A stretch of DNA of 64,000 bases from Mobula hypostoma (Eukaryota), in the NCBI RefSeq assembly GCF_963921235.1, contig NC_086123.1:30442001-30506000 (forward strand), in the 5' to 3' direction. The position numbers were made by a program, and so were the translations under genes. Below are positions 44,201 to 59,845 of the stretch, piece after piece. The notes beneath the pieces were generated by a model, which worked only from the letters and a program-made list of their open reading frames with translations, did no database searches and was not told the origin of the DNA. The stretch's first letter is position 1, and every line of letters begins with the position of its first letter.

Positions 44201-46140
44201 TGTAGATTTTTTTAAATAATATAAGTAACCATATTATTGTATTTCATAACCCAATTTATTTTGATTGATTGATCATGAATATAAGATACTGTGATTGTAT
44301 CAGTGTGATTTATATATAGTGCATTATGTGCTACCTTATGTTGATTTATAGTAAGTATCCTTATGAATTCTGTACTTATGGATATGAAATTTAATAAATT
44401 TAATAAAAATATTGGGGAGAAAAAAGAATCTTCAATTCCCTGGCCCTGACCACCTCATTTTCACAATGGATGTCTAGTCCCTGTACACTTCTATCCCCTA
44501 TCAAGAAGGGCCTTAAAGTTCTCTGCTTCTTTTTCAACCAACGACCCAACCAGTTCCCCTCCACCACCACCCTCCTCCATCTGGCAGAACTGCTCCTCAT
44601 CCTCAACAATTTCTCCGTTGGCTCTTCCTACTTTCTGCAAACTCATAGGGTAGCCATGGGCACCCGCATGGGCCCCAGCTATGCCTACCTTTTTGTTGGC
44701 TATGTCGAACAGTCCATATTCCAAACCTTCCTTGGTAATGCTCCCCAACTCTTCCTGCGCTACAGTGATGACTACATTGGAGCTGCTTCATGCACCCATG
44801 CTGAATTCATCAATTTAATCAACTTTGCCTCCAACTTCCACCTTGTCCTTAAATTCATTTGGTCCATTTCTTACTCCTTTCCTGATCTCCCTGTTTCCAT
44901 CTCCGGAGACAAACTGTCTGCTGACATCTTTTATAAACCAACTAATTCCCACAGCCATGTTGACTATACCTCTTCCTTCCCTGTCTCCTGTAAAATGCTA
45001 TTCCCTTTTCTTAGTTCTTTTGTCTCCACCACATCTGTTCCCAGAATGAGGCGTTCCTTTCCAGGATATCAGAGATGTCTTCTTCAATGTGTGTGGTTTC
45101 CCTTCCTTGAACATTGATGCTGCCCTCATCCGCATATCCTCCATTTCCAGACATCCACACTCTCCCCATCTTCTTGCCACCTTAACAGGGATAGTATTCC
45201 TCTTGTCCTCACCTATGTACCACCCCATGAACCTCCATATCCAATACATCATTCTTTCCAACTTGCGTCATCTTCAATGGGATCCTACCATGAAACGCAT
45301 CTTTACATCCCCTCCCACTTTCCACGGGGATCACTCCCTCAGTGATACCCTGGTTTATTCGTTACTCTCCAATCTCCCACCTGCCACATATCCCTGCAAG
45401 CAACAGAAATGCTACACCTGCCCATTCACCTCCTCACTTACCCCCATTCAAAGCCCCAAACAATCCTTCCAGGTGAGGCAACACTTCGCTTGAAAATCTG
45501 TTGGGGGTCGTCTATTGTATCCAGTGCTCCTCATGTGGCTTTCTCTACATTGGTGAGACCAGATGTAAATTGGAGGACTGCTTCATTGAGTACCTATACT
45601 CCATTGGCCAAAAGTGGAATTTCTCGGTGGCCAATCATTTTAATTCCTATCCCTATTCCCGTTCTGACATGTCAGTCCATGGCCTCCTCTTTTGCCATGA
45701 TGTAGCGACTCTCAGGGCAGAAGAGCATCACCTCATATTCTGTCTAGATAACCCCCAACTTGATGTCATGAACATCAATTTCTCTTTTTAGTAATAGATC
45801 TTTCCCTTCCCCCTTCCCTTTTCTTCAATTACCCAATCTGGTCCCTTACTTTTTCTCCCCACCTGCCTAATACCTCTATCCTAGTGTCACCCCTTCTTCC
45901 CTTTTTCCCATGGTCCACTATCAGATTCCTCCTTCTCCAGCCCTTTACCTTTCCCATCTACCTGGCTTCGAGCTAGTCCTCCTTGCCCTCTCCCCATCTT
46001 TTTTATTTTGGTGACTTCACCCATACTTTCCAGTTCTGATGAAGAGTCTCAACTGTTCATTAATTTCCATAGATGCTGGTTGACCTGCTGAGTTCCTCCA
46101 CTATTTTGTGTGTTGTTCTGGATTTCCAGCATCTGCTGAA
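41233..46140 (+). mobile_element. Penelope-like element (RT and GIY-YIG endonuclease), split by an L1
   Basis: MDV.S; VAMGTRMGPSYAYLFVGYVE; LRYSDDYIG; FYKPTNSHS; GVVYCIQCS.CGFLYIGET. 5' piece 41233-41384 and 3' piece 44424-46140. Confidence 0.88.
41385..44423 (+). mobile_element. L1/Tx1-type LINE, 5'-truncated, 9-bp TSD
   Basis: GKSSGPD, SYRPISLLNVD, SLDAEKAFDR, RQGCPLSPLLF, LYADD, CNRC...HIFW; TSD aagaatctt at 41376-41384 and 44424-44432. Confidence 0.93.
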
Positions 46141-46234
46141 TCATTTGTGGTTACTACTAATATGTTCCCTTATTTCTTCTGGGACAAACTGATTGACAAT
46201 ATTAAAGTGTCAGCAATGATAATATTAAAGTGTA

Positions 46235-47200
46235 GGCTGACTTGCAGGAGGCAAAGACTGAAAATAGAGGGGGCCTTTTCTGGATGATGGCTGGGAACAA
46301 GTGGTGTTTCACAGGCAGCAGTATTGGAATCGCTTCTTTTCACATTATATGTCAATGATTTTGATGATGGAATTGATGGTTTTGTGGCCAAGTTTGCTGA
46401 TGATACAAAGACAAGTCAAAAGACAGATAACGTTGAGGAAGCAGAGCGTCTGGAAAGGGACTTAGACAGATTGAGAGAATAAGACAAAGAAGTGACAGAT
46501 GGAATGTAATGTAGGGAAGTGTAAAATCATGCACTTTGGTAGAAAGAATAAAGGCATAGACTATTATCTAAATGGAGAGAAAATTCAAAAATCCAAGGTA
46601 CAAAAGAACTTGGGAATCATTGTGCAGGATTCCCTAAAAGTTAACTTGCAGTTTCAGTCAGTGGTAAGGAAGGCAAAAGATTTGCTGGCACTGGAGAGGG
46701 TTCAGAGACAGCTCATGAGAATGACTCTAGGTATGCATGGGTTAATGTTTGAGGAGCATTTGGCGGCTCTGGGCCAGTAGTTGCTAGAGTTTAGAAGAAT
46801 GAAGGGTGGAAACTATCTCATTGAAACTATCAAATATTGAAAACCCTTGATAGAGTGAATGTGCAGAGGATGTTTCTTATAGTAGAGGAAGTCTAGAACC
46901 CAAGAGCACCACCTTATAATAAAGGTACGTCCATTAAAAACAGGGATGAGGAGAAATTTCATTAGCCAGAGGGTAGTGAATCTGTGGAACTCATTGCCAC
47001 AGATGACTGCGGAGGTCAAGTCATTGGGTATATTTAAAGCAGAGGTTGATATGTTCTTGACTAGTCAGGGCGTCAAAGGCTACAGGATAAGGCAGGAGAA
47101 TGGGGTTGAGAGGGATAATAGATCAGCCATGATGGAATGGCGGAGGGGACATAATGGACCGAATAGCCTTATTCTGCTCCTATGTCTTATGGTTTTATAA
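46235..47200 (+). mobile_element. CR1 LINE 3' fragment
   Basis: AKFADDTK, CNVGKCKIMHFGRKN, RRNFISQRVVNLWNSLP; tatgtcttatggt tail. Confidence 0.88.
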
Positions 47201-48953: not shown

Positions 48954-49791
48954 CTAAAATATATGTAAGAAGGAATATAATCAATATGAAGCAAATTAAT
49001 CTTGAAATACTCAGGTCAAATGACATCTTTTATGAATAAGGTAAAGGAAAACTCCTTCAACATAAGAATGAGTTTAAACAGGAGAGTGCCAGTGCAGGGG
49101 TCTCCTTAAGGTCTTCCATTCAAGGAAGAAGGGCCTCAGAGCATCTTTGTGCGGAGGTATTAGACAGATTAGATACCTGTGGTGAAAATCAGCTAACTTT
49201 AATGAGAAACTGAAAGAATTTGAAGAGGAAGAGAGCATCAGAGATGTAACAGATGTAAACAGAAAGAGAATGGAGGAAAGAAAGAATTATGTCAAAGTAG
49301 GAAGTAAAAAGTCCTGTGAGGTGCAAGTAGGCTGAAACTATAGGTCCCCCGATGCATCTTCAATAACTCCAAAAGACTGGAAGTAGGGTAAATACTGAAA
49401 GGCTTTTATTCGCAGTAAAATGTAACCTCCAGCATGCTGAGTGTCTGCCCCTGGACTGAGGAGGAGGAGCAATGGTGAAATTGCCTTATTCAGGGGTCTG
49501 TGGGAGGAGCCACAGGGGCAGTCAGCAGAGGGGCGTGTCCAGACAGGTAACCCAGTTACAACATATATATATATATGGTTTACCACATTCACCCCTCCTT
49601 TTTTTAAAAGAGTCCCGCGGGGTGAAGTGACTGACAATATTTAAAACAAGTATATTTACAGGTCAAGTTTATGAGGCGGTCCAGTCCGTCGCTGTGATCT
49701 ACATAGCACCGGTAGTGATTGCACCGGTGATGGCAGTTGTGCTGGCTCCGGCTTGACTTGAGGTGTCAGCACATTAGGCATCGGTAATCCC

Positions 49792-51936
49792 TCATGCGTG
49801 TGCGTTGCGCCTGATATGGGAGTGTCGTGTGGTGTCTGTGTAGGGCTTGGAGTGCACGGTGTCTGGTGGGTATATATAATTGGTGGATACAGGGTTAGTA
49901 GTCATCATGGAGTGTTCAGGGTAGGGGCCCGGTGCACCTGCTGGCGCCAGGTTGTGGATGGAGACCGTGTCCTCCCGCCCATCAGGTAAAACCACATAGG
50001 CATACTGGGGGTTCGCATGAAGTAAGTGAACCCTCTTGACCATCGGGGAGTATTTATTGCTCCTCACATGTTTTCGGAGCAGCACTGGCCCCAGGGACAT
50101 CAGCCAAGTTAGTAGGGTGGTCCCAGTGGTTGACTTTCTGGGAAAAGGAAAGAGTCGCTCATGAGGGGTGGCATTGGTGGACGTGCATAACAGGGAGCGG
50201 ATGGAGTGGAGTGCCTCGGGAAGGACCTCCTGCCAGTGGGAGACCGGCAGTCCCTTTGACCTGAGGGCTAAGAGTGTGGCTTTCCACACCGTGGCATTCT
50301 CCTTCTCCACCTGTCCATTCCCCCGGGGATTATGGCTCGTGGCCCTACTAGTTGCAATTCCCCTAGCCAGCAGGTATTGGTGCAGCTCGTCACTCATAAA
50401 TGAGGACCCCCTGTCACTGTGGATATAGCATGGGTATTTGAACAGAGTGAAGAGCCTGCGCAGGGCTTTTATAACTGACGTGGTAGTGGTGTCGGGGCAG
50501 GGGATGGCGAATGGAAACCACGAGTACTCGTCGATAACATTAAGAAAGTACACATTGCAGTCGGTAGAGGGACGGGGGCCCTTAAAGTCAACACTCAGTC
50601 GCTCAAAGGGGCGGGTGGCCTTGGTTAGTTGTGCCTTTTCGGGTCAGTAGAAGTGCGGTTTGCACTCTACACAGACTTGGCAATCCCTGGTCATCGTCCT
50701 GATCTCCTCAAGGGAGTAAGGCAGGTTCCAGGCTTTCACGAAGTGGAAAAGCCGGGTGACCCCCGGGAGGCAAAGATCTACGTGTAGGGCATATAGCCAG
50801 TCGATCTGCACGCTGGTGCACGTTCCCCAGGATAGGGCATCGGAGGGCTCGTTGAGCTTCCCAGGCCTGTACATGATGTCATAGTTGAAGGTGGAGAGTT
50901 CGATTCGCCACCTCAGAATTTTATCAGTTTTGATTTTGCCCCGCTGTTGGTTACTAAACATGAATGTGACTGAGCACCGGTCAGTTAGCAGGGTGAACCT
51001 TTTGCCAGTGAGATAGTGCCTCCAGTGCCTAATACCTTCCACTATGGCCTGGGCCTCTTTCTCCACCACAGGGTGCCGAATTTCAGGGCCTTGAAGGGTA
51101 CGGGAGAAGAATGCCACCGGTCTTCCCACCTGGTTGAGGGTAGCAGCCAGTGCAAAGTCGGAGGTGTCACTCTCTACTTGGAAGGGAATGGCCTCATCCA
51201 CCGCATGCACTGCTGCTTTGGCAATGTCCCCTTTTATGTGGCTGAAGGCTGCATGGGCCTTGGCTGAGAGGGGGAATGTGGCGGACTTGACCAGGGGGCG
51301 GGCCTTGTCTGCGTAGTTAAAGACCCATTGGGCGTAATGCGAAAAGAAGCCCAGGCACCTTTTGAGGGCTCTGAGGGTGTTGGGAAGAGGGAGTTCCAAC
51401 AGGGGGCGCATACAGTCAGGGTCAGGGCCAATGACTCTGTTCTCCACGACACACCCAAGGATAGCAAGTCGGGTGGTCCCGAACACACACTTGTCCTTGT
51501 TATAGGTGAGATTGAAAGCTTTGGCCACTTGGAGAAATTTTTGGAGGTTGTTGTCGTAATCCTGCCGGTCGTGACCGCAGATGGTGATGTTATCCAGATA
51601 TGGGAACGTGGCCTTCAGTTGGCACTGGTCCACCATCTGGTCCATTTCCCTCTGGAAGACAGATACACCATTCGTGACACCGAAGGGGACGCGCAGGAAG
51701 TGATAAAGCCTGCCGTCCGCCTCGAAAGCAGTGTAAGGGCGGTCCTCCCGGCGGATGGGGAGCTGATGGTAAGCAGATTTTAGGTCTATGGTTGAGTACA
51801 CCTTGTACTGTGCTATCTGATTGACCATATCCGTGATGCGGGGTAGAGGGTATGCATCGAGCTGCATGAACCTATTGATGGTCTGGCTATAGTCCACGAC
51901 CATTCTACTTTTCTCCCCGTTCCGAACAACGACCAC
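49792..51936 (-). CDS. pol: Pol (RT, RNase H, integrase) of the Gypsy element, interrupted by a stop at ~50644
   Basis: RMVVDYSQTINRF..LDAYPLPRI, IDLKSAYHQ, VPFGVTN, YLDN; RNase H ESDTS, EKEA, LTD; integrase SVDFKGP, HSDRG, GNGQVEKEN. Confidence 0.9.
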
Positions 51937-52260
51937 CTGCGCCCTCCAAGGACTTGTGCTTGCCTCAATGACCCCTCCCTAAGCAGCCGCTGCACCTCTG
52001 ACTTAATGAAGGCTCTGTCCCCTGCGCTGTACCTCCTTCATTTAGTTGCCACAGGTTTACAGTCGGGGGTCAGGTTGGCGAACAGCAGTGAGGGAGGGAT
52101 CTTGAGGGTGGAGAGGCCGCAAGTGGTGTCGGTAGTGCTGCTGTTGGCATGGTGTTGGGTGGGATGTGCGGGTCGGTGTGGGTGTGTGATCAGTAGCGGG
52201 GTATGTGAAGTATTCCTACAAAACTGGGGATTTATGACAGTGATTGGTAGGAGGGGCCCA

Positions 52261-53604
52261 TCATACTCCATTGTCATGCTTTTCAGGTGGCTCTGGAAGT
52301 CGAGCCCCAACAGCACAGGGGCACACAGTTGAGGCATGACCAGTGATGTAAAGTCTTGATATTCTGTGCCCTGCACCACTTGCGTCGCTACACAACCTCT
52401 GCCCCCCCCACCCCCGCCGGATGTCTGTTGTATACGACTTGGAAGCCATGGCGAGCCTCTGACTTACCGGCCGTATCACGAGTCCACAATGCTGCACCGT
52501 GTCCTGGTGGATAAAACTCTCCATGCCGCCTGTGTCAAACAGGCAGCTTGTCCTGCGCCCCTCCACCAGGATGTCCATCATTGACCTTGCGAGCTGGTGG
52601 GGAGCGCTTTGGTCGAGGGTCACAGAGGCCAAGGTTGAGTCGCTATCTTGGTCCGGCATGGTGGGGTGCCCCGTGAGCACCCGTTGGTCGTAGGCGGTGG
52701 GAGGTGACACCGACCAAGATGGCCGCCCCCATGTCTCGCACGTGGTGGCGGCTTGCAGGGAAGATGGCGACCCCCATGTCTCACATGTGGTGGTGGCGTG
52801 CAGGGAAGATGGTGGCAGGCAAGATGGCAACCCCCATGTCTCGCACACGGCGCTGCTCGATCCCGCTCGCGGTTTGGACTCACAGACCTTGGCGAAGTGG
52901 CCCTTCTTTCTGCAGCTGCAGCAGGTAGCTTCCCGGGCCGGGCAGCGTTTCCGGGGATGCTTCTCGAGTCCGCAGAAGTAGCACTTCGCAGACTCGCAAC
53001 TGGCAGCAGCTGAGGTCGATTCACCAGCAGGTTGTGGGGTCTGCGGCGCCAAGGCCATCGGGGGATCGCATGCCTGGAGAGCCTCAGAATTGTGCAGAGC
53101 AGCCTCCAGCGTGTCAGCCAGCTCGATCGCCGAATGTAAGGTAAGATCAGCTTTTTCCAACAGCTGCTGGCGTACATATATTGACCTGGTCCCCGTGACG
53201 AAGGTGTCTCTCACTAGGAGCTCTGCATGCTGTCCTGCCGTCAGCCCCTGGCAATCTCAGGCCCGCACGAGCGTCCGTAGTGCCTGGACAAACTCAGCAC
53301 TTGATTCCCTGGGCCGCTGTTGCCGAGTCGCTAAGCGATGCCATGCGTAGACGGTGTTTACCGGCCGCAGGTATTGTCCTTTGAGTGCGCTCATTGTGCA
53401 GTCATAGCTCGGCTGGTCTCTGATCATCGAGTAGACCCGTGGACTGACCCTGGAGAGTAGAACTCTGCGCTTTGCTGTGGAGTCGGTCACTTCAATCGCC
53501 TCTAGGTATGATTCGAAGCAAGCCAGCCAGAGTTCGAAAGCGTTTCCAGCTTCAGGTGTTTGCGGGTTGAAATCTAACTTGTTGGGTCTCAGGACGCATT
53601 CCAT
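52261..53604 (-). CDS. gag: Gag-protease of the Gypsy element (one in-frame stop near 53257, later frameshift)
   Basis: CYFCGLEKHPRKRC and CCSCRKKGHFAKVC knuckles; protease LFDTG. Confidence 0.85.
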
Positions 53605-53916
53605 GCTTTAAAATTACTGCGAATAAATTTGATGCACCTTCAATAACTCCAAAAGACTGGAAGTAGGGTAAATACTGAAAGGCTTTTATTTGCAGTAAAA
53701 TGTAACCTCCAGCACGTTGAGTGTCTGCCCCTGGACTGAGGAAGAGGAGCAATGGCGAAATCGCCTTTATTCAGGGTTCTGTGGGAGGAGCCACAGGGGC
53801 AGTCAGCAGAGGGAAGCGTCCAGACAGGTAACCCAGTTACAACATATATATATATATATATATATATGGTTTACCACACCCCCTGTGGAGCTTGGGGAGG
53901 ACATACAAAGACTTAC

Positions 53917-55199: not shown

Positions 55200-55925
55200 T
55201 CAGGGTCTTTGCACTTTGGTTGAAGGAATAAAGGTGTAGACTATTTTCTAAATGGGGAGAAAATTCAAAAACAAAAGGTGCGAAGAGAATTGGGAGCCCT
55301 TGTGCATGATTCCCTAAAGATTAAGTTGCAGATTGGGCCAGTAGTGAGGAAGGCAAATGCAATGTTTGGAAGGACTAGAATATAAGAGGATGTGATGCTG
55401 AGGCTTTATGAGGCACTGGTATTGGAATTGGAGTAGGTCCAGAGGAGGTACACGAGAATGATTCCGAGAATGAAAGGCTTAACGTATGAGGAGCATCTGA
55501 TGGCTCTGGACCAGCAGTTTCTAAGAATGGGGGCCGGGGGGGGGGGTGGTGAGAATCTCACTGAAACCTACTGAATATTTTAACGCTTAGATACAGAGAA
55601 TATGGATTCCTTTAGTGGGTGAGTCTAGGAGCAGAGAACACAGCCTCAGAATTGAGGGACACCCATTTAAAACAGAGATGAGGAGGAATTTCTTTAGCCA
55701 GAGGGTGGTGAATCTGTGGAATTCATTGCTATGGATGGTTGTGAAGGCTAAGTCATTGAATATATTTAAAGCAGATGTTCTTGATTAGTCAGGATGTCAA
55801 AGGTTACAGGGAAAAGGCAGAAAAATGGCATTGAGAGGGATAATAAATCATCCATGATGGAATTGCTGAGCAGACTTGATAGGCCGAATGGCTTAATTCC
55901 GCTCCAACGTCTTATGGTCTTATGG
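55200..55925 (+). mobile_element. CR1 LINE 3' fragment
   Basis: RRNFFSQRVVNLWNSL motif; tcttatggtcttatgg tail. Confidence 0.82.
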
Positions 55926-56544
55926 TTATCACTGAAGTTGTTTTACAGTACAGAACAAATTAATAATGATTCTGCACAGACAGTGTAACATTTCAATCTC
56001 CATCACTATTGCATACATAAATAAACATGGGATTACTTCTTCTTGGAATATAATAACACTGACATGATAACTGGTGACGTCACATTAATGACAGTTCAAT
56101 GCATTAATGCATACACAGACTTTATAAATATCTCATTGGTAATGACAAGAGCTCACATTTGTTGTGTGTTTATAGGTGTCTTCTGCATCTAAAATATGTT
56201 TAGCAAGTAATGTTTTTTGAAATTTATAACATTAACAATCCATTCTTCTTGCCTTCAGTTTATTTTCCCATTTTGGTTCACAGCAGCATTTCACTAATAT
56301 GGATTTGCCTTGCATATAATATTGGCAGATTTTCAAGGTTACCCAGGAGAATAGCTCGCAGACCAGTCCATTGTTTAATTCACTCTGCATGATATCAAAA
56401 CACGGCTGACACTACTAGATGTGGTAAAGGCTATGAGACATGAAAACCCAAGTAACAATACACAAAAGATTTATATTCCAGAACAAAACATGTTTTTAGT
56501 TTTAATAAACTAGCAATCCATCTGACAATGCAGAGCTTTCCAAT

Positions 56545-58950
56545 CACCAACAAGAGAAAATCTGCAGATGCTTGAAATCCAAGGAACATGCACACAAAAT
56601 GCTGGAGGAACTCAGCAGGCCAGGCAGCATCTATGGAAAAGAGTACAGTCGACATTTTGGGCCAAGACTGGAGAATAAAAGATGAGCAGTAGGTTTAAAA
56701 GGTGGGGGAGGAGAGAGAGAAAAAAAACACTAGGTGAAAATGGGAAGGGGAGGGATAAAGTAAAGAGTTGGGAAGTTGATTGGTGAAAGAGATACGGGAC
56801 TGAAGAAGGGGGAGTCTGATAGAAGAGGACAGAAGGTCATGCAAGAAAGAAAAGGGGTGAGAGTACCAGAGGGAGGGGATGGGTGGGCAAGGAGATAAGG
56901 TGAGAGAGGGGAAAGGGGATGGAGAATGGTGAAGGGGGGGGCATGGCCAGAAATTCAAAAAAATCGATGTTCATGCCATCAGGTTGAAGGCTACCCAGAC
57001 AGAATATAAAGTGTTGCTCTTGCAACCTGATTGTGGCCTCATCATGACAGTGGACAGTGGAGGAGGCCATGGATAGACACATCAGAATGGGAAAAAGAAG
57101 TGGAATTAAAATGGGTAGCCATTGGGAGATCCTGCTTTTTCTGACTGACGGAGCGTAAGTGCTCGGCGAAGTGGTCTCCCAACCTACATCGTGTCTCACT
57201 GATGTACAGGAGGCCACACTGGGAGCACCGGACACAGTATATAACCCCAACAGACTCACAGGTGAAGTGTTGCCTCACCTGGAAGGACTGTTTAGGGCCC
57301 TGAGTGTTAGTGATGTCATGGTCCGGCCCGTGAAGTCTGCAGTCCGGTTCACAGTCCGGTCTGTGGACTCAGGACTCTGGGTCTTCCAGCTGTCCCTTGT
57401 TTGAGTTAATCATAGGCACCTGATTCCCACCTTGGGGCTTGGAATATAAGTAGCCGTGGGGTTGAGTGTGAGCTGCTGGTTGTTTTGTCAAGATCCCCTG
57501 GGAGCAACCTGCCAGTGGAAGGCGAGAGCAGCCAATTGCCATCTTTAGGCCGCATTGGGGAACCATCCCCTCATGGAGCCTTGCTGTCAGTAGTCGAAAC
57601 TGTCTTTGCGGTATGGATTCGGCTGTTTCCCGGGCCAGCTGAGTGACTACCTGCTACTCTGAGCTAGGTAGGGATCTGGCTGTTTCCGTAGCCAGCTGAG
57701 GTTGCTGGCTGAACTGAGGCTTGGAGCTACCCCGGAGCAGAGATGGAACTGTCTGTCGTTCTTTGGTGTTGTCTCTTCTTGTCCTCGCCTCTGTGGGGTA
57801 AAACAGGCTGTTTTGCCGTTGCCCTGCAGGGGAATCTGTCTTGTCTTGTCCTCGCCTCTGTGGGGTAAGTGAGGCTGTTTTGCCATTGCCCTGCAGGGGG
57901 GGGGGCGGGGATCTGTCTTGTCTTGTCTTTGCCTCTGTTGGGTAAGTCCGGCCATTCTGCCGTTACCCAACAGGTGGACCTGTCCCACCTTGGTGTGGAG
58001 ATAAAGTTGAGTCCTGGCTTGTTTAAGGATAAGTCCCGGCTCTGTGTCCATGCACTGTCCAGTCTCGTGTTAGTGTCATGTTAACAATGAGTCCTGGTTT
58101 TTCGATGGATAAATCCCGGCTCTATGTTGATGTACAGTTCCCAGTCTGTCTCTGAGCTCCAGCCTCTGAGTTATCAGCCTCCGTATTCCAAGAGCCCAAG
58201 CCTCGAGGATCCCGCAGCCAAGCTCCAAGAGCCCAAGCCTCGAGGATCCCGCAGCCAAGCTCATGACCCAAGACCCCAGTCTCAAGAGCAAAGACCCCAG
58301 CCTGTCTCCAAGCTCAAGCCTCTAGGCCCCAGCCACGTCCCGTCCTGAAGCCATGTCATGTCCTTGCCTGGTTCTGGGGTCCGAGCCCGAGGCAAGACCC
58401 AGGGTCTGGGTCCTTGTCCAGTCTTAGGCTCGGAGTCGAAGCCTTGTCTCCTAGTCCATGGTTTCTAGTCCTGGTCCCGCTTTCCCTAGCCCAAGTCTGC
58501 GTTCTTGTCCCTGGTCCTGGTCTGAATCCTGTCACGTCCCTACTCTAGTCAAGTCCTGTTCCTTGTACTTCAGTGTCCGAGTCTCGCATTTGGGTCCGTT
58601 CTCAGCACCCGATTATGCCAAGTAAGAGAGGAGGAATAGGGGCAGGAGTAGCATTTGTTCTGCTTGCAAGGATAAGTACCAGGAGGGAGATCAGTGGGCA
58701 GTGGGGAGGAACAAATGGACAAGGGAGTCACATAGCCGGGGGGTGGGGGAGAGATGTGTTTGGTGGTGGGATCCCACTGGAGATGGCAGAGGTTTCGGAG
58801 AATTACATGCTAAACATAAAGGCTGGTGGGGTGGTAAGAAGATGGGGTGAGAGCAGATATGCGTGAAATGAAAGAGATACAGTTGAGGGCAGCATTGATA
58901 GTGGAGGAAGGGAAACCCATTTCTTTAAAGAAGAAGGACATCTCCTTCAG
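56545..58950 (-). mobile_element. Penelope-like element 3' part, split by a solo LTR
   Basis: QVRQHFTCESVGVIYCVRCSQCGLLYISET...LGSLQPDGMNIDF; continues after 58620. Confidence 0.85.
57314..58620 (+). mobile_element. Solo LTR (~1.3 kb, Sushi-like) with internal tandem repeats
   Basis: Starts tgtcatgg, tataag box near 57445, gcatttgggtcc U5 motif shared with the 19.7-23.5 kb element, ends tgcca; flanks agtga/agtaa (5-bp TSD, one mismatch). Confidence 0.8.
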
Positions 58951-59289
58951 TCTGGAAACTTTGCTCAGTTACCCTCAGAAACCAACAAAAATGATGGAAG
59001 GTGTCAATGATAATGTTATCAAGTATTAAATGCACATGAATAATCATATCATAATACTCAGTTTGAGTTTCACAAGAAACATTTTGCTCCAGCCATCATT
59101 ACTATCTACGGCTAAGCATTGATAAACAAACTGATTTTCAGAGGTGATGTTGAGTAAATGTCACTGGCATCAAGAAAGAATTTTACCAAGACACCCTGGT
59201 AAAATTTGAATCACTGGAAATCAAGGGATAAACTGGAAAATCGTTGGGACAATATTAAGCACAAATCAAGATTGTTGTGGTTGTTGAGG

Positions 59290-59845
59290 CTTTTCATTCC
59301 AGAATGAAGAGATGTCCTCCTTTTTCAAAGAAAGGGGCTTCCCTTCCTCCACATTCAACACTGCCCTCAACTGCATCTCTTTTATTTCACACAAGCCTGC
59401 TCTTCCACTATCTTCTCACCACCCTACCAGGGACAGGATTCCTCTTGTCCTCACCTACCACCCCACCAGCCTCTGTGTCCAGTACATAATTCTCCATAAC
59501 TTCCGCCATTTCCAGTGGGCTCCCCCCTTTTCTTTCTTCCATGGCCTTCTGTCCGCTCCTCAGACTCCCCCTTCTCAAGCCCTGCATCTTTCACCAATCA
59601 ACTTCCCAGCTCTTTACTTCATCCCTCCCCCTCCCGGCTTCACCTATCACTATGTATTTCACTCTCCCTTTCACCACCTATTAAATCTACTCCTCATCTT
59701 TTTTTTTCTCCAGTCCTGCTAAAGAGTCTAAGCCCCAAAACATCAACTATACTTTTTTGCATAGATTCTGCCTGGCCTGCTGAGTTCCTCCAGCATTTTG
59801 TGTGTGTTGCTTAGATTTTCAGCACCTGCGGATTTTCTGTTGTTT
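59290..59845 (+). mobile_element. Penelope-like element fragment
   Basis: MSSFFKERGFPSS...RDRIPLVLTYHP; gcctggcctgctgagttcctccagc terminus. Confidence 0.82.

Follow-up and report, generated by a model that had tools for sequence, protein, structure and literature searches.

The element on the minus strand of a 64,000-nucleotide stretch of Mobula hypostoma DNA (contig NC_086123.1, positions 30,442,001 to 30,506,000; hereafter the window) raises the question of how a Ty3/Gypsy LTR retrotransposon begins reverse transcription when its leader is complementary to its own LTR. The original prediction, made from this one copy, was that the element has no primer-binding site for a tRNA and may be primed by its own RNA in a geometry different from that of Tf1.

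The element and the pairing of its leader

TG..CA LTRs, a polypurine tract (PPT), a target-site duplication (TSD), and the domain order PR-RT-RH-IN are all present in the window element (Table 1). A Pfam search with its gag and protease pieces gave no match, while the closest solved structure to its reverse transcriptase (RT) is that of Ty3. Given the LTR mismatches listed in Table 1 and a broken gag-pro region, the window copy is dead. The genome searched for relatives of the element measures 3.48 Gb, and the first look at this stretch gave about 2977 candidates. In the family, the TSD is 5 bp long in 39 of 48 copies. The catalytic motif of the RT reads YLDN in place of YxDD, and when a motif expression was run on 120 listed homologs, 68 had xxDN, 31 had xxDD, and 21 did not match; the xxDN type also occurs in intact polyproteins. 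Short tandem repeats lie at 57770-58260 and, within gag, at 52716-52865, and the segments 45000-47200 and 55200-59800 of the window hold what we take to be fragments of LINE-like and SINE-like repeats.

Table 1. Coordinates, in window numbering, of the parts of the element and of its predicted RNA features
Feature	Position	Strand	Remark
Left target-site duplication GGGGG	53879..53883	-	right flank 49349-49345 agrees at 4/5
5′ LTR (TG...CA)	53630..53878	-	249 nt, of which part is a TA microsatellite; mismatched to the 3′ LTR at 12 of 238 aligned columns
TATA-like box, GAATAAAG in the window copy	53765..53772	-	TATAAA in 59/80 sampled copies
Initiator-like TCAGTCC	53733..53739	-	putative label; predicted transcription start at A 53737
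Predicted self-primer (capped 5′ fragment)	53684..53737	-	putative; 54 nt in the window subfamily
Pairing arm, 15 nt, ending AATAAAA	53684..53698	-	pairs with the leader; predicted cut after 53684
Poly(A) hexamer inside the pairing arm	53690-53685	-	
Remainder of R and U5	53630..53683	-	inner stem opens at GCCT just past the predicted cut
Spacer base 53629 and primer-binding site 53628-53614	53614..53629	-	53628 differs from the family's usual T
Leader, 25 nt	53629-53605	-	gag ATG at 53604
gag (ATG 53604, two CCHC knuckles) and protease region	52041..53604	-	interrupted by stop codons and frameshifts
Reverse transcriptase and RNase H	50647..51978	-	444 codons open; catalytic motif YLDN
Integrase core	49795..50643	-	without chromodomain
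Polypurine tract	49588..49605	-	
3′ LTR	49350..49587	-	arm copy at 49418-49404

As had been predicted, a 14-mer of the leader (53627-53614) is the reverse complement of the element's own LTR, matching the 3′ LTR at 14/14 positions (49405-49418) and the 5′ LTR at 13/14 (53685-53698), and the 25-nt leader does run from the end of the 5′ LTR (53878-53630) to the gag ATG. None of 5000 shuffled leaders had at least 13 exact matches to the 3′ LTR, the best reaching 12. The proposed spacing of 2 nt from the LTR edge is correct for the window copy, in which 53628 has changed, but does not describe the family. Most copies have T at the equivalent position and, since position 1 is paired in 70 of 74 copies, the family duplex begins one base past the CA of the LTR; it comprises 15-16 bp and ends at AATAAAA. 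A single long stem-loop had also been envisaged. The arm-to-leader stretch folds at -23.3 kcal/mol, a stability that 0 of 300 mononucleotide shuffles attained, whereas the predicted 138-nt 5′ end as a whole folds no better than dinucleotide shuffles (z -1.16). In U5, positions +1 to +4 after the predicted cut are predicted to be paired in 18 of the 24 families described below, the remaining 6 having no predicted inner stem. The arm almost always ends in AAA followed by RCCT, which L169 exchanges for TGG/CCA.

Covariation of the leader and the LTR arm

Compensatory covariation between the leader and the LTR arm, by which the original prediction proposed to judge the pairing, is present both inside the genome and across families. 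Among near copies (n = 30), two alleles occur at duplex position 8. Exact patterns with a gap of 56-57 gave LTR/leader counts of T/A 53 and G/C 39, and the discordant classes, taken from ten listed rows, were T/C 7 and G/A 3; this corresponds to 92 concordant against 10 discordant copies (Fisher p 2e-17, uncorrected for shared descent). A pattern blind to the arm returned 649 LTR-leader-gag junctions, of which the first 80 listed, all on two contigs, were sampled. Most of these represent a third subfamily, whose duplex has 16 bp, and 74 could be anchored on the U5 side for a pairing table. Of these 74 copies, 70-73 are paired at positions 1-7, 10, 11, 13, and 14, 66 at position 12, 54-56 at the CpG positions 8-9, and none at position 17. 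Base pairs are swapped between subfamilies at position 11 (A:T 67, T:A 5) and at position 15 (G:C 54, T:A 6, G:A 8), so that the three ray subfamilies are set apart by compensatory pairs, although these within-genome counts represent few independent events because the copies share descent. A search for private LTR variants mirrored in the leader was without power, as most differences postdate insertion. At two positions the allele on the LTR side appears to have come first (G:A 8 vs T:C 1; T/C 7 vs G/A 3), as would fit repair of the site templated by the primer, although two such events are no proof. For Ty1 and Ty3, the primer sequence is reported not to be inherited (PMC5371799).

Relatives were collected from 80 metagenome contigs kept out of 326, from 11 prokaryote records with apparent host contamination, and from five of those genomes. 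Prokaryote genome records thus hold these retrotransposons (L169-L179, G001-G005), apparently as host DNA contamination. The cross-clade comparison was anchored on the start of gag and required a 13-nt arm exactly 1 nt after a CA. Among relatives at 34-65% RT identity, 33 of the 52 gag-anchored places with enough upstream DNA (four further places had too little) pair at 12-13/13, compared with 0-1 of 100 shuffles. With five duplicates removed, 29 of 47 unique sites pair at this level, and the letters of the site differ between relatives. The 18 unique misses comprise five distant gags (three outside the clade in the tree and two not placeable), seven places whose arms are mutated but recognisable by eye, five without a recognisable LTR, and one in which the leader is present and its LTR partner is absent. 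Twenty-four families and subfamilies were then selected for pairing (19 gag-anchored, two anchored by hand, and three ray copies). In this set, positions 1-13 are paired in 92-100%, with up to four pair types used, pairing fades across positions 14-16, and background is reached from position 17. Pairing with the own leader averages 12.7/13, a score inflated by the selection of the set for pairing, against 8.0 for swapped leaders, of which 14/552 reach 12. Even close relatives (L090/L091 and L100/L102) are separated by single compensatory pairs. One relative carries a 17-nt direct repeat in both U3 and leader that overlaps the end of an 18-bp duplex (L108:2160-2337).

The claim that a tRNA primer-binding site is lacking also withstood examination, with TGG at the junction in 0/24 families. 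The host tRNA sample was small, consisting of nine sequences that are all Lys-TTT (30 loci of 60 Rfam matches), and their longest complement to the site is 5 nt; the main argument against tRNA priming is therefore that the site follows each element's own LTR. It might nevertheless be supposed that the duplex is merely regulatory, serving poly(A) masking, packaging, or translation, and that priming falls to a host RNA, whether a tRNA, a fragment of one, or some other kind. The overlap of the duplex with the poly(A) hexamer would suit such a role, as would the arm of subfamily B, which may resemble an anticodon loop (CT-GCT-AA), presumably that of a Ser tRNA, and the poor tRNA sample leaves room for it. 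However, the letters of the site change with each element's own LTR, the arm combined with a T-loop motif occurs in the genome at chance level (3 matches, none a tRNA, against 4 for the control), an Rfam search over the element found nothing, and none of the 58 read-through junctions described below has foreign sequence after the site. A purely regulatory duplex is thus highly improbable.

Candidate primers and the record of read-through junctions

Self-priming in some form is almost certain, and the primer is probably a capped 5′ fragment of the element's RNA, freed by folding and a cut between AAUAAAA and GCC. By analogy with Tf1, the RNA would fold so that 15-16 nt of its own R pair with the site one base past the 5′ LTR, and would then be cut at this point, probably by the element's own RT/RNase H. 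The resulting capped 5′ fragment, 51-54 nt long if transcription starts at the initiator (Inr) found at TATA+31, would become the primer. Minus-strand strong-stop DNA would measure about 55 nt and could transfer by means of what little of R remains between the cut and the poly(A) site. Plus-strand strong-stop DNA, when first made, would copy the whole primer and be displaced, as in Ty3, where this product is described as a dead end (PMC5371799). The displaced strand may sometimes fold back or jump template and then integrate, giving palindromic and rearranged insertions.

If R itself acts as the primer, a backward copy of R is expected where the plus-strand DNA leaves U5. A search for an LTR end and primer site continued by LTR complement found 58 such genomic places and 0 for the control pattern. 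Of these read-through junctions, 40 belong to the main subfamily, or ~6% when set against 625 normal junctions of the main subfamily and intermediates, and the inverted copy extends to the start of the LTR in 45/58. Among the 28 junctions that have both ends intact and do not enter the PPT, an exact 5-bp TSD is present in 19 and one with at most one mismatch in 22. The integrase therefore inserted these junctions as palindromes, and the by-products so integrated copy R in place of the leader. The palindromic insertions (L357-L414) are ~400 bp long: a single LTR is followed by one base and then by U3-R in inverted copy, so that both sides are U3 ends. Fold-back of a displaced strand whose last 51 nt are complementary to its own R would explain this commonest class, but full palindromes alone do not name the primer because fold-back needs just the 15-nt site. 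Their arms diverge by 5.1% (n = 39) and ordinary LTR pairs by 5.0% (n = 69), with lineage-marking sites differing at 8.0% and 8.9%, respectively; since the arms are as alike as LTR pairs, there is no sign of a second molecule. A comparison of left with right arms did not separate the priming models.

At 13 junctions the inverted copy is short; measured on one reference copy, the lengths are 19, 28, 29, 33, 50, 50, 52, 55, 55, 129, 161, 163, and 163 nt. Of these 13, five end at 50-55 nt, -4 to +2 of the predicted Inr A, a window that was fixed after viewing the data (uniform P ~1e-4). In one of these five (L359), the copy jumps through a 7-nt microhomology into sense internal sequence. The short copies support a 51-54-nt primer cut between AAUAAAA and GCC, and not the first 11 bases as in Tf1. 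Against this reading, the 50-55-nt cluster consists of five loci with ragged ends, and a CCCCC/GGGGG hairpin surrounding the Inr could also cause stops or deletions there; the six families without a predicted inner stem are a further point against it.

At seven junctions the copy extends across U3 and the PPT and over 0.3-4.3 kb of internal sequence; a 5′ fragment could template this only if a switch occurred. Such junctions would be expected from direct copying of a different primer, the 3′ end of the RNA, whose R copy would shed the poly(A) tail and 10-30 nt, pair with the site, and loop the RNA. Such priming would keep the whole of R for strand transfer, and the rearranged insertions, of which four of nine examined have exact 5-bp TSDs and one more matches at 4/5, speak for it as well. 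Insertions of this kind (L415-L424) contain a 5′ LTR, an inverted 3′ block, and a switch to the sense strand, and several end at a 3′ LTR with matching TSDs. However, priming from the 3′ end does not predict the copies that stop opposite the Inr (5/13), needs a trimming step of no known kind, and leaves the conserved RCCT stem past the cut unexplained, while the palindrome arms, no more divergent than LTR pairs, give no hint of a second molecule. It is distinctly unlikely.

The predicted RNA start bears on whether the primer is instead that of plain Tf1 geometry, in which transcription would begin at the arm, the first 11-16 bases would prime, and the upstream TATA box and Inr would make other transcripts. 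With the TATA box starting at 53772 and the Inr A at 53737, the pairing arm is predicted to open at nucleotide 40 of the transcript. Assembled contigs, as far as their loose ends were listed, displayed neither transcript starts nor ends, nor any poly(A) junction. In 58 TATAAA copies with an Inr match, the Inr A lies 31 nt past the start of the TATA box in 42 and 31-32 nt past it in 52, and the predicted primer measures 51 nt in the main subfamily, a length given by 61 of 69 copies, compared with 54 nt in the window copy and its subfamily. The spacing was calibrated on the chromoviruses of this genome, whose 11-nt arm lies 30-31 nt past a TATA-like box in 6/8 loci scanned (10 LTR hits). For the rays, the suggestion of a geometry unlike that of Tf1 is borne out, with the Inr at TATA+31 and ~37-40 nt before the arm, but this does not extend to the whole clade. 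A TATA-like box lies 35-48 nt ahead of the cut in L106, L108, and L117, placing the arm at or near the predicted RNA 5′ end, and these three relatives are possibly Tf1-like in primer geometry; in L089 the box is 70 nt ahead of the cut, and in most relatives none is visible. Besides these three boxes, plain Tf1 geometry would account for the initiator-like context of the 11-mer, which has G at position 2 in 23/24 families and A/T before it in 24/24. In the rays, however, no box lies 30 nt before the arm and TATA+31 lands on TCAGT. Stops at 11-16 nt do not occur among the 13 short copies, a weak point since the search pattern could not catch such stops. For this element, a start at the arm is quite improbable.

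The position of the poly(A) signal suggests another source for the same fragment, namely a short transcript of the 5′ LTR ended by host cleavage and polyadenylation, trimmed to the hexamer, and acting in trans. In 14/24 families the end of an AATAAA or ATTAAA lies no more than 1 nt from the cut, as such a source would require, and the 50-55-nt stops fit it equally well. In the other 10/24 the hexamer is absent at the cut, although three of those have one 11-32 nt downstream. Host poly(A) cleavage occurs 10-30 nt downstream of the hexamer, the hexamer would be concealed by the duplex, and the inner stem suggests folding in cis, which together make a primer in trans very unlikely. Where the hexamer lies at the cut (14/24 families), masking of the poly(A) signal, as first suggested, may come with the duplex. 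In older subfamilies, the TATA box (53772-53765 in the window copy) reads GAATAAAG and so holds a second AATAAA in U3, which would be transcribed in the 3′ LTR ~80 nt ahead of the main hexamer. Taken together, priming by the RNA's own 3′ end trimmed to the hexamer or by a fragment made through host polyadenylation is unlikely. If either were true, it would be a priming route undescribed for LTR elements, spread from corals to rays, and would tie termination directly to the start of reverse transcription.

Placement of the clade and its meaning

The element was correctly called non-chromoviral. Neither a chromodomain nor a Tf2-type SH3 domain was found in the window reading frame beyond the integrase core, in 8 polyproteins, or among the Pfam entries of the 240 homologs listed, whereas both were detected in 2/2 control chromoviruses from this genome. 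A quick tree was built from 72 RT-RH rows, with rows of <200 aa left out; in it, the 47 members of the clade share a single branch with a long stem (SH-aLRT 100), and the 11 chromoviral rows lie apart. Five RTs from IMG/VR, which held only distant RTs (23-32%), mostly in 7-8-kb genomes that are taken to be caulimoviruses, served as outgroup rows. Given the lack of a chromodomain and the separate RT grouping, it is very likely that self-priming occurs outside Tf1/Sushi. Forcing a sister relation between 12 clade and six chromoviral rows of the quick tree, with L031, the row nearest the chromoviruses, outside the constraint, was marginally rejected (p-AU 0.046); since this value is borderline, an origin of self-priming independent of the chromoviruses is not established. 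Homolog searches returned 957 and 958 proteins past the cut-offs. The closest named proteins among the matches listed come from rays (Mobula 89%, Hypanus 83%), and named homologs occur in rays, catshark, corals, anemones, nematodes, a fluke, a spider, a copepod, insects, and a sea slug.

The nearest mechanistic parallel is provided by Tf1/Tf2 of Schizosaccharomyces pombe, Tj1, and the Tf1/Sushi group, whose primer site is likewise complementary to their own R. The Tf1 primer is made up of the RNA's first 11 bases (PMC7175516, PMC5341516, PMC4600332), cut between bases 11 and 12 (PMC7175516), and about half of the Tf1 cDNA is reported to retain a single-stranded primer copy (PMC11042837). A helix just past the predicted cut and a primer copy on the plus strand are shared with the ray family. 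However, the RT of the ray family is only 22-31% identical to theirs and belongs to the separate long branch without chromodomain or Tf2-type SH3, the duplex measures 13-16 bp in place of 11, and the ray arm lies ~37-40 nt into the predicted transcript, ends in the poly(A) hexamer, and is 54 nt from the LTR end. The chromoviruses of this genome (L328-L347) have an 11-nt self-complementary site with the same 1-nt spacer, and two self-priming gypsy lineages therefore share this host. In plants, self-priming has been predicted, likewise from LTR-leader complementarity, for Tcn1 (gypsy) and for TAR/Houba/Osr-1 (copia), so that in TAR it arose outside the chromoviruses, while plant non-chromoviral gypsy elements are reported to be tRNA-primed (PMC6317226). 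Ty3 of Saccharomyces cerevisiae resembles the ray family in its RT structure and in its displaced plus-strand strong-stop DNA with a primer copy (PMC5371799), but its primer is tRNAiMet, and this DNA therefore cannot fold back on its own R.

Among animal elements, the double CCHC gag of the family may resemble that of Mag, and the original label Mag-like is putative. Saci-2/lennie of flatworms also form a compact single-ORF gypsy clade distinct from CsRn1; their primer sites are reported to vary, and they are described with 4-bp TSDs, polyproteins of mostly ~1400 aa, assigned tRNA primers, and a CCCH gag (PMC12471100; PMC2582038). An identity with Saci-2 was not adopted, as these descriptions set it apart from the ray family with its 5-bp TSDs, ~1200 aa, and two CCHC knuckles. 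The Mag lineage and MolGy/PolGy are other widespread non-chromoviral gypsy clades of animals (PMC6238403, PMC8556966), and one of the MolGy groups that bear numbers may correspond to the clade. The terms PBS and primer binding are absent from the main texts of the mollusc and annelid surveys (PMC6238403, PMC8556966), and a motif search of the readable files of the supplement to PMC6238403 gave no match. The full-text literature searched holds no account of the primer of this animal clade; Repbase, Dfam, GyDB, and most subscription papers lay outside that scope, and an earlier mention of its self-priming in such sources is possible. What is new are the 58 genomic junctions at which the reverse complement of the LTR follows on from an LTR end and primer site.

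Whereas the literature consulted ties gypsy self-priming to the Tf1/Sushi chromoviruses, it is here placed, very probably, in a separate and widespread animal clade. This suggests that independence from host tRNA, and hence from tRNA-fragment defence, arose repeatedly or is older than thought. In addition, a long 5′ tail on the primer appears to be tolerated by the ray family. Its misassembled insertions form a genomic record of plus-strand intermediates, and in any genome with self-priming elements a short pattern search of this kind can be used to infer which primer is used and where the RNA begins.
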